Of a stretch of 64,000 nucleotides of DNA, positions 49,165 to 53,163 are shown one piece after another. A program made the position numbers and the translations under genes. The stretch's first letter is position 1; every line of letters starts with the position of its first letter. The stretch is from Vermamoeba vermiformis (Eukaryota). The notes beneath the pieces were generated by a model, which did not search any database, had not been told where the DNA came from, and saw nothing but the letters and a program-made list of their open reading frames with translations. The stretch lies in NCBI GenBank assembly GCA_045837725.1, contig JBEWZL010000115.1, positions 62,001-126,000 on the forward strand, written 5' to 3'.

Positions 49165-50031
49165 ATGGCGAAACAAACACCGCCAGTACCACACCAAAAG
49201 ACTGGCGAGGCCGTATTTGGCAAAATGGAAAAAATTGTAAGCACGAGCTAACGTCATCTACCAATGTCATTAATAATTTGTATTTTTTAGAATTCAGAAT
49301 TATTTACATTAACGTATGGAGCCATTGTTTGGCAATTATTGCAGGATTATGAGGACAACGTGGATGAGGTTAATAATCAATTAGAAAAAATGTAAGTGAG
49401 TAAATAAGTGGAAAAAATATTAAATGTGTATGCAAAGGGGCTACAACATCGGCTTGCGATTAATTGACGAATTTTTGGCTAAATCTGGACAAGGACGCTG
49501 CCGAGAGCTCAAAGAAACAGCTGACGTAATTGCTAAGGTAACAATTGCGCATTATACTCGTTTGAGGACTATTTAGTGTCTTATATATTATTGATTGCGA
49601 TTGTGTGACAATTCTTGCAGATTGGCTTTAAAATGTTCTTGGGCATTACAGCTACAGTAGTAAGGACTCGTAGAGCTCGCTGTATAGTGTTCATTAGCTA
49701 ATCAGCTTTGCAGGTCGGTTTTGACGCTAAAAATCGCGAATTCAGCTTGCAACTCGAAGACAATCCGCTGACAGACTTTGTGGAGCTGCCAGACAAGTAC
49801 CGCAACAAGCTCAACTACAACAATCTGCTCTGCGGCGTCATTCGCGGCTCACTGGAAATGGTACGAGAAGCGGCATGAGAATAGACAGCCTTGCTAATTA
49901 TCGATAATTAGGTGCAAATGGACGTCGAGTGCAAAGTGGTGCGCGACATTCTGCGCGGTGACGACGTGTGCGAGATCAAAGTGCACTTGAAGGACTACTT
50001 GAAGGACGAGATGCCCGTGGGCGAGGACTGA
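49165..50031 (+). CDS. BET3: TRAPP subunit Bet3/TRAPPC3, multi-exon
   Basis: NSELFTLTYGAIV, LEKMGYNIGLRLIDEFLAK, IGFKMFLGI, NPLTDFVELP, LLCGVIRGSLEMV. Confidence 0.96.
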
Positions 50032-50363
50032 GCAGCTGTGTGTTGTGAATACTATTCGTGTGTTGTACATCTGATTATTAAACCTCTTTCCGCTGTTGTC
50101 TGCTTGCTGTCCTGTGCACTGCGATCCGATGCACGCTGTTTCCCATACAGTGCGTGGCGTGTCAGTGTTAATCAACTACTGTGTCTGTGTTACATCCTCG
50201 TGACTGTGTTCATTCTACCCGCCGAGATTTCATTCTTGCTTTCTCACCCGCCAAAATTGTTGCAGCGCGGCACTGCCTCGTCAGTTAGCACTGTGCCGTT
50301 AAGTGAGCTACATCAACACCAAGCAGGGTCTTATTTCTTTGTTATGTTCTGAACTGCACCATC

Positions 50364-52141
50364 ATGAGCAAACCAGAGAGCAATACTGCTGCAGATGAGA
50401 ACAAAAGCAGCAGTGGAGTCATGCACTTAGAACACGAGTGGATATTGTATTATGACGAAGGTGCCCCTAAAGGTCAAGAGAACACCCCATTCGAGAGCTT
50501 TGTCAAAGTGATAGGCCAGTTTTCGACTGTTCAGGCAAGAATTTAAATTATTTCGCGAACTATTTGTCTCATTGCATTCAATATTCGGAAAAATATTAAT
50601 CTGATATGTGTTAATTATTTTAGGATTTTTGGAGATATTGGAATAACATAGATGTAACCAAATTTCCTAGCTACGCGAATTTGCGATTATTCAAAAAAGA
50701 TATTAAGCCAATATGGGAAGATTCTCACAATGTTAAAGGAGGCAAGTGGGTGAGTAGCACTATTCGAGCACACTACACACGACTTTGACTGACGCGGTGC
50801 AGCTGATCGAACCGCGCAACGATGACATATCGCAGATGTGGCTCTACTGCATATTGCCGATGATTGGCGAGCGATTTCAGTACTCCGACGAGATAGTAAG
50901 TGTTCCTGTAGTCTCAGTGCACCACTCACCTCGCCTCTTGCAGTGCGGGGCCGTGCTGTCCTTCAGACCCAAGCGCAAGTCCATTGCACTCTGGAACCGC
51001 GACGCGAGCAAGACAGAGGTGTGCGACAAGACTGAAGCGGATCTGCGCACATTTCTCAAGCTGCACCACCCTGGCGACATTCGCTATCAATCGCACGCGG
51101 TACGTGTCCCTAGCAGTTACAGCTGAGTGCTGACGCGTGACACAGGACTCGTACGACTTCAAGCCCAGTGAGCCCAAGGCCAGTGCACTCAAGAGCAGTG
51201 TTGAGGCACCGCCACGACCCTCGCGCGTGCCAGAACGACAGCCCGCACCGCTGACCAAGAAGCACAGCTTTGACGAGGACGAGGACACCTTCAGCTCACC
51301 GTTCATTGAACTCACGCACCAATTCGAGCCCAAGACCACCGCTGCCCCGAGTCCTGCAGTGCGCGAGAAGAGTGATCGCTTGAGTGCGCGTGCAGCCAAG
51401 TACAAGCACCACAAGACGAGTTCGCAGCAGCGCGACACCAGCACGACACCGAGCACGAGCAGCACGATGCAGCCTCCGAGTCCACAGCGCTCGTACAGTG
51501 TGGGCAGTCTGCAGCACTTGTACTCGCTGTACGAGCAACACAAAGCACGCCGCTCCACGCGCAAGTCCTCGACAGACAACACCAAGAAGAGCAGTGCGAG
51601 TGGTGTGCAGAACAATCCTGCGCTCAGTCTCTCGCTCAACACCACCGCACTCGTCTCACCGCGCAATGTGCTCGCCACCTCCCTCACCACACCACCTGTC
51701 TCGCGCCGTCGCTTGCGTCGATCGCGCCGTTCAGACTCTCAGACAGGTTCGTGGGACAAGAAAGATCCGCTGAGCAGTTCGCTGGGCGGCATGACGACGA
51801 GTTCCGACGAGGAGAGTGTCGTGCTGAGTGCCAGCAGTGGTGCCAGCAGTGCGCGCCATCACCGCCGCTCCTCGTCCTCGTACAGTGCGGGCAAAGAGAT
51901 GATCATTCACGGGCACTCGCGACACCACTCGCGGCACTACTCGCGCGACAACAGTGCTGTCACACCCAAGCCCGTCAACGACAGTGCCACCGCGACACAC
52001 GACAGCAATCACAAGTCCCCGCAGATTGGTGGCATCCCCTCGCAAGTGGTGTTCATCTGCGGCACCCTGCTGCTCGTGTTTGTGGTGATGTTCTGCTACC
52101 GCATGATCGTCAATTCAAAAGTGATGCTCATTCAGCGGTGA
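50364..52141 (+). CDS. eIF4E-family protein with Ser-rich extension and predicted C-terminal transmembrane helix
   Basis: HLEHEWILYYD, FSTVQDFWRYWNN, LFKKDIKPIWED.HNVKGGKW, ICGAVLSFR, IALWN; in-frame splice 51100-51145 to a tail ending VVFICGTLLLVFVVMFCYRMIV-NSKVMLIQR. Confidence 0.85.
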
Positions 52142-52323
52142 GGGGGCACTTCATTGGTACCAGCACACTTCTACTCGAGGGGTGGTTCATTTTTTTAATG
52201 ACCAGGTGTGTTGTTGAACTCCCTATGTACATAGTTATCAATAAATAGCGTTGTGCGCTGTATTTACAACTGTACATCCGAGTAGTAGTATACACCATCC
52301 ATCCTATGAATACACACCATCCA

Positions 52324-53163
52324 CTACTTGCGCTGTTTCTTCGGATCCGGTACCTCGCCCAGATCCCACTGCGACTTGCGCTTCTGTCCAGTGCTGCTGG
52401 TGCTGCTGGTGCGGGGCAGCGAGGGCTTGACACTACTAGTGCTCGGTGCACTCTTGGCATTGACGAGCTGTTGCTGCTCCTGATCGAGCTGCTTGTAGTA
52501 ATCAGTCGCGCTGAAGCGGTGCGGATCCCACACCTCTTTGGCGTAGTTGGTGCCGATCTCGTCAATGCCCACGAACTGCACGAGGGTGGTGAGTAGTTCT
52601 GGGTTCTTAAAGTCCTTGGCACGACGCAGATTGCGATTGAGACTCTTGCCTGCGCGTTTAAATTCATGAAAATTGCTGATCTTCGTCACGAGTGCTGGAT
52701 CTGGTGCTGCACTTGGAGGAGGAGGACCCCATGACGAGTAGTCTATGGAAGGCACGGCGTGTGTACTCGGTGCATTATCATTGGACTGTAGTGTTGGTGC
52801 TTGTGGCTGTTAGGAATGAAGATCTGAGTATTCTGCGCGAAAGATTGGAATAATAATAAAGAGTTATTATTGTTAATTATAATTATTATTGGTCTTATTG
52901 TTAGTATTGGCATTATTATTAGTGCACGAATGATGATAACAAACCTCTTCTACTTGTTCATAGTCCGCGACACTCGCCAAAGCATTGTCCTCGTTCTTAT
53001 CATTGTGATCGTTAATATGATTATTATTATTATCACTCGTAGTGTCCTCTATATGTGCATCGGTGGTGGTAGGTGCAGTCACATCTGGCACCACCACAGC
53101 CCCTTGCTCCTCATGTTGCGCGGTGTCGTCGTCCTCTTCATTGGCATAGTCTACGAGTGACAT
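52324..53163 (-). CDS. SAP30BP: SAP30-binding protein / HCNGP-like
   Basis: MSLVDYA..; PPPP, DFKNPELL..LV..GIDEIGTNY..VWDP, DYYKQL, KRKSQWD. Confidence 0.88.

Follow-up and report, generated by a model that had tools for sequence, protein, structure and literature searches.

Class II eIF4E proteins (4EHP, or eIF4E2) carry a Tyr, Phe, or Leu at the position equivalent to W43 and a Tyr or Phe at the position equivalent to W56. In Class III (eIF4E3), the W43-equivalent is kept and the W56-equivalent is Cys or Tyr. The retention and control of mRNAs at organelle surfaces is still debated, and the known players fall into two kinds: p180 and others bind the body of the mRNA, and the Sec61β-ARIH1-4EHP system uses adaptors to recruit a cap binder to the membrane. 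The membrane-anchored protein p180 (RRBP1), which has a long basic cytosolic region, is proposed to keep mRNA on the ER in a ribosome-independent manner (PMC3362647). In animals, the tail-anchored ER protein Sec61β recruits ARIH1 and 4EHP and represses a set of mRNAs; 4EHP itself is soluble and is found at the ER only via its partners (PMC12936171).

The window analyzed here is a stretch of 64,000 nucleotides from Vermamoeba vermiformis (contig JBEWZL010000115.1 of assembly GCA_045837725.1, positions 62,001 to 126,000). A gene located at 50364-52141 on the + strand of the window encodes a protein of the same domain family (PF01652) and fold as canonical eIF4E (human eIF4E1, Drosophila eIF4E, and C. 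elegans IFE-3). The second stacking Trp, the adjacent Glu, and the dorsal Trp are common to both. The window protein differs in having a Phe for the first stacking Trp, in the loss of the dorsal-edge His-Pro, and in approximately 330 extra C-terminal residues that end in a predicted membrane helix. The closest solved structures by sequence are those of 4EHP (PDB 5nvk, 5xln, and 2jgb), and in both proteins the first stacking residue is an aromatic residue other than Trp. 4EHP is soluble, whereas the window protein has its own predicted anchor. Within the class definitions given above, the W43-equivalent of the window protein (Trp26) lies outside Class II and the W56-equivalent (Phe43) lies within it. 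The residue pattern is similar to that of eIF4E3 (Trp kept, Tyr/Phe second), but the mouse-type chain 4b6u scored 65.5 bits versus 106 for 4EHP. The likeness to p180 consists of a membrane anchor and a long basic cytosolic region, with no homology between the two proteins. p180 presumably contacts the body of the mRNA via its basic region, whereas the window protein has a putative cap-specific folded domain and a C-terminal anchor. The Sec61β-ARIH1-4EHP system comprises three proteins acting in trans, whereas the predicted anchor and the putative cap binder of the window gene reside in one polypeptide. Sec61β has no homology to the linker or tail, and a Pfam search of these two regions returned no family match.

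The gene comprises five exons, all on the + strand, with 1542 nucleotides in frame for 513 amino acids and a stop codon. All four introns are absent from contigs of four public runs from four studies (X1, X3, X6, and X7). None of these runs is recorded as RNA and their label ("RNA?") is a guess; the evidence for the spliced form therefore comes from contigs of guessed library type. Three single contigs (1617, 1625, and 1550 nt) have all introns removed and extend from 50300-50360 to 52145-52163. The 5′ untranslated region covers at least 50300-50363, with spliced contigs starting at 50300 (X1), 50307 (X3), 50328 (X7), and 50360 (X6). An in-frame stop codon is found just 5′ of 50307, no ATG occurs in frame before position 50364, and the relative P0002 begins at the same Met.

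Exon 1 (50364-50534) encodes the N-terminal 57 residues, including Trp26 and Phe43, and matches positions 2-34 of the Pfam IF4E profile. Intron 1 (50535-50623) is a GC-AG intron of 89 nt with 25% G+C, a splice-site type that the initial annotation does not mention. Its joint is present in four of four runs with a 3-nt ambiguity, and among the four possible cuts 50534|50624 alone has a known splice-site class (GC..AG) and leaves TVQ|DFW in frame. A GT donor at 50529 was rejected, as it disagrees with the contig joints and its use would cut the conserved Val-Gln out of TVQDFW. Exon 2 (50624-50749) encodes DFWRYWNN...PIWED...GGKW with the dorsal Trp60 and the cap residues Trp88 and Glu89 (profile positions 35-77). 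It is followed by intron 2 (50750-50802; 53 nt, GT-AG), the joint of which appears in four of four runs. Exon 3 (50803-50895) contributes 31 residues (profile positions 82-110). The joint across intron 3 (50896-50943; 48 nt, GT-AG) is found in three of four runs, the X7 contig stopping at 50886, 5′ of the intron. Exon 4 (50944-51099) encodes the end of the core with Arg138, Trp147, and ...YQSHA (profile positions 111-157 of 158).

Intron 4 (51100-51145; 46 nt, GT-AG) falls precisely where the core gives way to the linker. The initial annotation had proposed that the core is spliced in frame to the downstream region through a GTACGT..CAG intron at this position and had singled out the 51099|51146 junction for verification. 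This proposal is borne out by the contigs of all four runs of guessed library type, which lack the intron and contain the joint. Exon 5 (51146-52141) encodes residue 183, the linker, the hydrophobic helix, the tail, and the stop codon. Retention of intron 4 would, as read from the sequence, introduce an in-frame stop at 51124-51126 and yield a soluble eIF4E of 190 residues. No such form was seen in the contigs of X1, X3, X6, and X7, and contigs drop rare variants. A possible polyadenylation signal (AATAAA) is found at 52240-52245, and one X7 contig extends to 52274. A spliced gene for an eIF4E relative with a long linker and a C-terminal hydrophobic helix is confirmed to be real.

Two other frames are also open for 270-290 codons in the same GC-rich stretch, and ORF length alone is therefore not evidence of coding. 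Comparison of the linker and tail with the genomic contig of a relative (L001) gave a dN/dS of 0.136 over 238 codons, and the differences by codon position were 23/21/80. The antisense ORF at 50926-51738 and the +2-frame ORF at 51376-52248 were ruled out as the true coding frame by this pattern together with the dN/dS. Among the contigs, 10 of 12 SNPs are synonymous, and the indels relative to related sequences keep the frame. These measures show purifying selection on both linker and tail. The same fusion of core and tail is found, without interruption, on the 1623-nt contig of P0002 (507 residues) and on the 1778-nt contig of P0005 (525 residues), and the junction sequence of both proteins agrees with that predicted for the window gene. 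Their cores are 97 and 93% identical to that of the window protein. The tail-only ORF calls P0003, P0004, and P0006 from relatives start shortly before the residues that the window gene encodes after intron 4, a pattern compatible with a conserved intron at the same place. The nearest relatives of the window protein in the tree are environmental or transcriptome sequences.

The full-length Pfam and fold analyses were conducted with P0002 and P0005, and the window protein was analyzed exon by exon. The Pfam IF4E profile (PF01652; cut-off 28.7 bits) matched P0002 with 146 bits (E = 1e-42) and P0005 with 147.7 bits (E = 3e-43). Exons 1-4 of the window match the same profile collinearly with 15.3, 47.4, 16.0, and 27.8 bits, respectively, and exon 2 is the sole exon above the cut-off alone. 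The W-E-D (PIWED) and TVQDFW motifs are both found. The full eIF4E core originally described for this locus stands. In the AlphaFold2 model of P0002, the block-mean pLDDT exceeds 85 over almost all of residues ~18-185, with one loop block at 64. A Foldseek search with this model returned the eIF4E chains 5abx, 4tpw, 1ejh, and 4ued with target TM-scores of 0.80-0.89 and E values down to 6e-20. The modeled domain has the "cupped hand" fold of eIF4E, a curved β-sheet backed by helices.

The cap pocket of the window protein consists of Phe43, Trp88, Glu89, Arg138, and Trp147, with Trp60 on the dorsal surface. We take the positions of Phe43 and Trp88 to form the m7G sandwich, that of Glu89 to recognize the N7-methylguanine, and that of Trp60 to serve the dorsal side. 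The first cap-stacking Trp had been suspected to be replaced by Phe within TPFESF, and Phe43 indeed aligns with the cap-stacking Tyr of human 4EHP. Among the 33 aligned anchored members of the family described below, the W43-equivalent is Trp in 32, and the W56-equivalent is Tyr in 14, Phe in 9, and Trp in 3. The W73-equivalent (dorsal) and the W166-equivalent are Trp in all 33. Trp is found at the W102-equivalent in 25/33, Glu at the E103-equivalent in 26/33, and Arg at the R157-equivalent in 26/33. The alignment indicates that the cap-pocket residues are retained, with Phe for the first stacking Trp. Human His37-Pro38 is replaced by Met-His and human Glu132 by Tyr in the window protein, and these positions are variable across the anchored family. 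In human eIF4E these residues contact eIF4G and the 4E-BPs. Since they are not kept, an eIF4G-type partner is uncertain, and on these positions a repressor role is just as possible.

The linker (residues 184-478) is encoded, together with the preceding residue 183, by 51146-52033. It contains 295 residues with 38% Ser+Thr+Arg, in agreement with the ~300 Ser/Thr/Arg-rich residues noted at the outset, and it has a net charge of +18 and a pI of 10.2. The pLDDT of the linker is below 50 over most of its length in the AlphaFold2 model of P0002. The sole linker element with raised model confidence is the helix SLQHLYSLYEQHK (residues 303-315; 51506-51544), which corresponds to residues 299-310 of P0002 (block pLDDT of 71) and is almost invariant in the close relatives and in P0008. 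Two short motifs are conserved. The motif FSSPFIEL (residues 231-238; 51290-51313) follows an acidic run and is conserved as [FY]x[ST]PFI[DE]L in 7/36 anchored members versus 0 in 200 shuffles; all seven carriers fall within the sub-clade of the window protein. The basic Ser motif HRRSSS (residues 421-426; 51860-51877) is conserved as H[KR][KR][ST]x[ST] in the linkers of 19/36 anchored members (shuffled mean 0.3, maximum 3). Neither the canonical eIF4E-binding motif (Y-x4-L-hydrophobic; 2/36 versus a shuffled mean of 1.5) nor the strict acidic LIR pattern (2/36 versus a shuffled mean of 1.8) shows enrichment in these linkers.

The core of the predicted transmembrane helix, VVF...FCY (residues 483-500), is encoded by 52046-52099. 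It was called with the Kyte-Doolittle scale, which is a crude predictor. The sole segment of the protein that reaches at least 1.0 covers residues 473-512 of 513; with a threshold of 1.6 there is likewise a single segment, at residues 475-511, and the best 19-residue window has a value of 2.46. AlphaFold2 predicts a helix at residues 475-506 of P0002 with block-mean pLDDT values of 75-96, and the helix part of the window protein is 97% identical to that of P0002. The C-terminal tail, RMIVNSKVMLIQR, is encoded by 52100-52141, which includes the stop codon at 52139-52141. The hydrophobic stretch of the initial annotation holds as a single terminal helix, but the tail contains 13 residues rather than 9, since RMIV had been counted into the helix. 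The net charge of the tail is +3. No N-terminal hydrophobic segment was found by Kyte-Doolittle, and the N-terminus is hydrophilic. The protein thus has the single C-terminal hydrophobic segment and the lack of an N-terminal one by which tail-anchored proteins are classed. A GPI signal was rejected because there is no signal peptide, and prenylation because there is no CaaX box.

In 36 members of the family, the stretch after the helix has a median length of 3 residues. Fifteen members have a net charge of 0 after the helix; of the others, nine are at +1, nine are negative, and three carry +2 or more. The tail of the window protein is the most basic of the family. The sorting rules for tail anchors link tail length and charge to ER versus mitochondrial targeting. 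Under these rules, the short and weakly charged tails of the family fit ER-type anchors better than mitochondrial ones. The basic tail of the window protein means that mitochondria or peroxisomes are also possible, and we regard the ER and the remaining membranes together as about equally likely targets. That the gene encodes a membrane-anchored protein with an eIF4E fold is very probable. The architecture proposed at first, a tail-anchored eIF4E paralog encoded by one spliced gene, has held up against the contigs, the fusions in the relatives, the dN/dS, the single modeled helix, and the distribution of the family.

Among 11 non-self eIF4E-domain matches of 278-888 residues, 8 end in a hydrophobic segment. 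In the larger set of 159 proteins (the best 150 representatives and the earlier matches), 37 non-self proteins do so, and the combination of an IF4E domain with a C-terminal hydrophobic segment, which was to be sought in other protists, is therefore found in 37 other representative proteins. The named members belong to Dictyostelium (among them the D. purpureum protein XP_003292639.1), Polysphondylium, Acytostelium, Thecamoeba, Mastigella, Pelomyxa, and Protostelium and to the heteroloboseans Naegleria and Pharyngomonas. Those with descriptive names are all hypothetical, uncharacterized, or misnamed. The Pelomyxa entry is named "digestive organ expansion factor", and a gene model of 1215 residues is a fusion to a seven-helix protein. 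All 39 anchored sequences in the tree are located on one side of a single branch, which has an ultrafast bootstrap of 99 and an SH-aLRT of 93 and separates 74 sequences from 75 unanchored ones, mostly of 185-350 residues and not labeled by eIF4E class. On the side of the window protein, 35 of the 74 sequences are without a terminal anchor; some are fragments or fused gene models, and a sub-clade of 14 seems to be truly unanchored. The anchor sequences are dissimilar among members, with position and hydrophobicity conserved rather than the letters. The "anchor" of P0110 is an Ala-rich run and is doubtful. The final letters of P0014 are presumably adapter-derived, and this protein is probably truncated. 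P0055, P0051, P0052, P0069, P0125, and P0154, which have core matches of fewer than 130 residues, were left out of the tree. No D. discoideum protein was among the four matches (444-1414 residues) to the D. purpureum core in a word-based, length-limited search, a result that does not imply absence. A search of the ESM Atlas returned no usable match. From these comparisons, the window protein is a member of a family conserved across amoebae and not a single oddity. The family is apparently undescribed so far. A full-text search of openly accessible articles found no description of a membrane-anchored eIF4E, and the passages located by term in PMC3388326, PMC5862402, PMC8657474, and bioRxiv 10.1101/2023.12.02.569716 contain no mention of one.

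The locus could in principle be a mis-joined model of two genes, the first for a soluble eIF4E terminating within intron 4 and the second, downstream, for a small membrane protein unrelated to it. Prokaryote-style ORF callers split the locus in this way, P0001, P0003, P0004, and P0006 being tail-only calls, and retention of intron 4 would supply a complete eIF4E of 190 residues. A separate gene for the tail is contradicted by the three single contigs that bridge the start codon to the stop without intron 4, and the fourth run contains the same joint. The uninterrupted contigs of the relatives also carry the fusion, the tail ORF has no Met before about its residue 111, and dozens of distant homologues share the two-part build. 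This explanation is very improbable. The protein could also be a scaffold or receptor at an organelle surface, with an eIF4E fold that is no longer mainly directed at the cap, acting in the manner of selective autophagy or sequestering partners via the linker motifs. The Atg8/LC3-interacting consensus is [W/F/Y]xx[L/I/V], and receptors for ER-phagy and mitophagy are usually anchored proteins with long disordered arms that contain such motifs. The F-I-E-L core of the first linker motif, after acidic and Ser residues, resembles this consensus, and both linker motifs occur far above the shuffled frequencies. However, the stricter acidic pattern occurs at about its shuffled mean, the FSSPFIEL-type motif is limited to one sub-clade, and the conservation of the cap pocket across the family is hard to explain if cap binding has been lost. 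A scaffold or receptor of this type is thus improbable, though less so than a mis-joined model.

A 4EHP-type translational repressor tethered to the membrane deserves more weight, although we consider it rather unlikely. The anchored head would bind caps near the membrane without recruiting eIF4G, for example during organelle stress, and would thereby block canonical eIF4E locally. The best matches among solved structures are to human eIF4E type 2 (4EHP; E = 2e-29, 106 bits), the first stacking position in the family is usually Tyr or Phe as in 4EHP, and the dorsal His-Pro and Glu132 positions are not kept. The W43-equivalent is almost always Trp, against the definition of the 4EHP class, and the dorsal Trp, which is used by eIF4G too, is invariant. 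With 104 bits against 106, canonical eIF4E falls only trivially short of 4EHP as a match. Animals do bring 4EHP to the ER in trans via Sec61β and ARIH1 (PMC12936171). Whether the net effect would be retention or local initiation rather than repression is evenly balanced.

Of the initial interpretation, the architecture is supported, and the proposed tethering of mRNAs to the ER or mitochondrial membrane is plausible. The reading that we somewhat favor is that of a tail-anchored cap-binding head, leashed to the cytosolic side of an endomembrane (probably that of the ER), where it would tether mRNAs. The folded cap-binding domain (residues ~18-183) would reside in the cytosol and be connected by the disordered, basic, Ser-rich linker of ~295 residues to the single C-terminal transmembrane helix, which would be inserted post-translationally into an endomembrane, most likely that of the ER. 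Where mRNAs are already close to the membrane, the head may capture their 5′ caps together with a partner on its dorsal surface. Such capture is possible because Phe43, Trp88, Glu89, Arg138, Trp147, and the dorsal Trp60 are kept, and we consider it fairly likely that the core binds the cap. From one round of initiation to the next, the mRNAs could then be held at the surface of the organelle, which would permit local control of translation. The conserved basic Ser motif suggests that the linker is probably regulatory. Membrane insertion, topology, the ER as target, cap binding, and mRNA tethering are all inferred from the sequence. A broader joint reading is doubtful as a whole. In it, the anchored proteins would be an old and separate cap-binding branch that is common to Amoebozoa and Heterolobosea and so may predate their split. 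The branch would keep capped mRNAs at the ER or at some other organelle directly and independently of SRP, would be switched by kinases and perhaps autophagy via the linker motifs, and could become soluble when the border intron is retained.

The family also bears on annotation, since the genes for anchored eIF4E proteins are split or wrongly fused by ORF callers and gene predictors, as in P0001, P0003, P0004, and P0006, the Pelomyxa entry, and the 1215-residue fusion. The family is found in tractable or medically relevant amoebae (Dictyostelium species and Naegleria fowleri), and localization, cap binding, and knockout phenotypes are therefore directly testable. If the favored reading is true, a cap-binding domain joined directly to its membrane anchor would represent the simplest means of retaining and controlling mRNAs at an organelle surface, and the working assumption that the proteins of the eIF4E family are soluble would be overturned.

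The sequence of 49800-52800 was read and its stop-to-stop frames were listed, which revealed a split eukaryotic gene on the + strand. The five exons are located at 50364-50534, 50624-50749, 50803-50895, 50944-51099, and 51146-52141 (all +) and join to 1542 nt in frame, encoding a protein of 513 aa. The start codon is assigned to the ATG at 50364, the first ATG downstream of an in-frame stop and the point at which P0002, a relative, also begins. Introns 2 (53 nt), 3 (48 nt), and 4 (51100-51145, +, 46 nt) are GT-AG. Intron 1 (50535-50623, 89 nt) is taken as GC-AG because the conserved TVQDFW, interrupted after TVQ, must stay in frame. This intron is far more AT-rich (25% G+C) than the other three (53-57% G+C). 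Within the gene the G+C content rises, with 34% in exon 2 and 60% in exons 4-5, and in the neighborhood blocks of about 20-40% G+C alternate with blocks of about 60%. The terminal part of a TRAPP-subunit gene (49702-50031, +) is found upstream on the same strand, a convergent HCNGP-like gene (52324-52809, -) downstream, and genes for a WD40 protein and a protein kinase farther out. The HCNGP neighbor is retained, also convergent, on L001, the genomic contig of a relative (L001 848-1528, -). Nothing suggests a functional link between the eIF4E gene and these neighbors.

Contigs of four public sequencing runs from four studies, whose library type is a guess and none of which is recorded as RNA, were aligned to 50250-52300. 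The joints across introns 1, 2, and 4 are present in contigs of all four runs and that across intron 3 in three; the contig of the remaining run ends at 50886. The intron 1 joint is ambiguous by 3 nt, and only the GC..AG cut belongs to a known splice class. In three cases (1617, 1625, and 1550 nt) one contig alone extends from 50300-50360 to 52145-52163 with all introns removed. The spliced contigs argue that the runs derive from mRNA. The in-frame splicing of core to tail across 51099/51146 proposed in the initial annotation is thus observed in all four runs (library type guessed), and the three start-to-stop contigs bridge this junction within one gene. In the X3 and X7 runs, 4-5 nt are inserted after 52145, just past the stop codon, and one X7 contig carries a 51-nt noncanonical skip (AC..CC) at 52172-52224; for both, strain variation in the 3' untranslated region is the probable cause.

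The same fusion is found in relatives. The exon 5 translation, used as a query, returned seven proteins. In P0002 (507 aa, contig 1623 nt) and P0005 (525 aa, contig 1778 nt), the IF4E domain and the same tail are uninterrupted, and their junction YQSHSES[Y/F]DFKPS corresponds to the predicted YQSHA-DSYDFKPS of the window protein. P0003, P0004, and P0006 are tail-only calls that begin slightly upstream of the same junction residues, as expected if the genomes of these relatives have an intron at the corresponding position. The length of the tail reading frame is weak coding evidence because two other frames are likewise open for 270-290 codons. Compared with L001 over the last 238 tail codons, the differences by codon position are 23/21/80 with a dN/dS of 0.136. 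Among the contigs, 10 of 12 single-base differences are synonymous, and the sole insertion within the reading frame is 3 nt. Intron 4 is positioned at the exact border of the eIF4E core and the linker and contains an in-frame stop (51124-51126); a transcript retaining the intron would encode a soluble eIF4E of 190 aa. Retention could therefore act as a switch between soluble and anchored forms, as read from the sequence; the contigs of the four runs show no retained form, but rare variants are lost in contigs.

Profile, fold, and pocket residues place the window protein in the eIF4E family. Its four core exons match Pfam IF4E collinearly over profile positions 2-157 of 158. The cores of P0002 and P0005 are 97% and 93% identical to that of the window and score 146 and 148 bits against Pfam IF4E (cutoff 28.7). 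AlphaFold2 was run on P0002 with a 38-row family alignment, and the block-mean pLDDT of residues ~18-185 is >85 almost throughout, with one loop block at 64. Foldseek aligned this model to solved eIF4E chains with target TM-scores of 0.80-0.89. The best solved relative by sequence is human eIF4E type 2 (106 bits), with Drosophila eIF4E just 2 bits lower. In human eIF4E numbering, W43, W56, W73, W102, E103, R157, and W166 correspond to window residues Trp26, Phe43, Trp60, Trp88, Glu89, Arg138, and Trp147, respectively. The suspected replacement of the first cap-stacking Trp by Phe is borne out at Phe43, which aligns with the stacking Tyr of 4EHP. The equivalents of human His37-Pro38 and Glu132 are not conserved. 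Since the W43 equivalent remains Trp, the protein is not of class II by the class definition; its likeness to class III is only loose.

Residues 184-478 form a linker with no match in Pfam, a Ser+Thr+Arg content of 38% (the long Ser/Thr/Arg-rich stretch noted initially), a net charge of +18, and a pI of 10.2. The pLDDT is <50 along most of its length in the P0002 model, with the exception of a short helix at P0002 residues 299-310 (block pLDDT 71). The hydrophobicity scan located one hydrophobic segment in the window protein, at 475-511, and none at the N-terminus. In the P0002 model the terminal segment is a confident helix at 475-506 (block-mean pLDDT 75-96). A single C-terminal segment with none N-terminal is the operational signature of a predicted tail-anchored protein. 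The expected hydrophobic stretch and tail-anchor signature were thus recovered, with a tail of 13 residues (net charge +3) and not 9.

The same architecture was sought in other organisms. A search with the P0002 core, restricted to proteins of 278-888 aa, yielded 13 hits; 8 of the 11 outside the window's group carry a single hydrophobic segment at their end. When 1.84 billion representatives were searched exhaustively without a profile, 3962 hits were obtained. The hydrophobicity scan of 159 proteins (the best 150 of 3962 plus earlier hits) flagged 44, and 37 of these, outside the window's group, extend the predicted combination of IF4E domain and C-terminal segment to other organisms. Among the best 150 of 3962, the flagged proteins outside the window's group cluster at the top ranks. 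A maximum-likelihood tree was built from 149 cores. The anchored rows, 39 in total, all fall on one side of a branch (74 rows) and none among the opposite 75. The support is SH-aLRT 92 in a quick tree, and ultrafast bootstrap 99 and SH-aLRT 93 in a careful tree whose bootstrap had not fully settled. The anchor label requires 18 changes versus a shuffled mean of 34.7 (0 of 500 shuffles as low). The 35 unanchored rows on the 74-row side comprise 9 with <=60 residues past the core, candidates for fragments or for soluble forms, 8 with a hydrophobic segment farther from the end (one a clear gene-model fusion), and 18 long proteins without such a segment. One sub-clade of 14 rows on this side, with a Vitrella protein among them, is entirely unanchored. 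The arrangement of eIF4E head, disordered basic arm, and terminal hydrophobic helix is common to a clade, with FWRYWNN as its core signature.

Members occur among Amoebozoa in Thecamoeba quadrilineata (two copies), Acytostelium subglobosum, Polysphondylium violaceum, Dictyostelium purpureum, Mastigella eilhardi, Pelomyxa schiedti, Protostelium nocturnum, Sappinia pedata, Stenamoeba stenopodia, and Cavostelium apophysatum. Others are found in the heteroloboseans Naegleria fowleri and Pharyngomonas kirbyi, in one transcriptome labeled as the ciliate Muranothrix gubernata, and among marine and environmental transcripts. Where descriptive names are given, they are either "hypothetical", "uncharacterized", and "unnamed protein product" or clear misnomers, and transcriptome entries carry assembly identifiers only. 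Public gene models of the family are often wrong (P0065, P0021, P0017): the member from Pelomyxa schiedti bears the name "digestive organ expansion factor", a second Pelomyxa entry (798 aa) includes long unrelated sequence, and in a model of 1215 aa the eIF4E core is joined to a seven-helix membrane protein (PF10192).

An alignment of 33 members shows the positions of the cap pocket and the dorsal Trp to be mostly retained. The anchors are alike in position and hydrophobicity but unlike in sequence, followed by a median of 3 mainly neutral or acidic residues. The linkers permit no overall alignment; two short motifs within them occur much more often than in shuffled linkers. H[KR][KR][ST]x[ST], a possible basophilic protein kinase site, is present in the linkers of 19 of 36 members (shuffled mean 0.3), at 51860-51877 in the window and in P0009, P0011, P0013, P0019, P0026, and others. 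[FY]x[ST]PFI[DE]L, preceded by an acidic run, is found in 7 of the 36 anchored members, solely in the window's sub-clade (FSSPFIEL, 51290-51313). Its F-I-E-L core resembles the Atg8/LC3-interacting consensus; a stricter acidic LIR-type pattern showed no family-wide enrichment in the linkers, nor did the canonical eIF4E-binding motif.

Neither full-text literature searches nor passages of individual papers yielded a report of an eIF4E anchored in a membrane. The word "transmembrane" is absent from a protist eIF4E review, where Amoebozoa are described as under-sampled (PMC3388326). The nearest known functional arrangements are p180-type ER mRNA receptors (PMC3362647) and the Sec61beta-ARIH1-4EHP module (PMC12936171), which are built from separate, unrelated parts. 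The anchored eIF4E sequences are already public, yet unrecognized.

The predicted cap pocket looks intact in a conserved, spliced gene of eIF4E fold. The helix would be inserted post-translationally, placing the putative cap-binding head on the cytosolic side. By the tail-anchor sorting rule, the short, mostly uncharged family ends fit ER-type anchors; among them the +3 tail of the window protein is least typical. Polymer scaling would give a 295-residue disordered arm an average reach of ~10-15 nm, and far more if stretched, so the caps that the head would meet would chiefly belong to mRNAs that had already reached the membrane. A close rival is a 4EHP-like local repressor, with which the drift of other partner-contact positions agrees but the invariant dorsal Trp does not; with these two features opposed, sequence favors neither repression nor capture. 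The reading to which we commit is local cap capture, by which the anchored eIF4E would retain mRNAs and organize their translation at the organelle surface.
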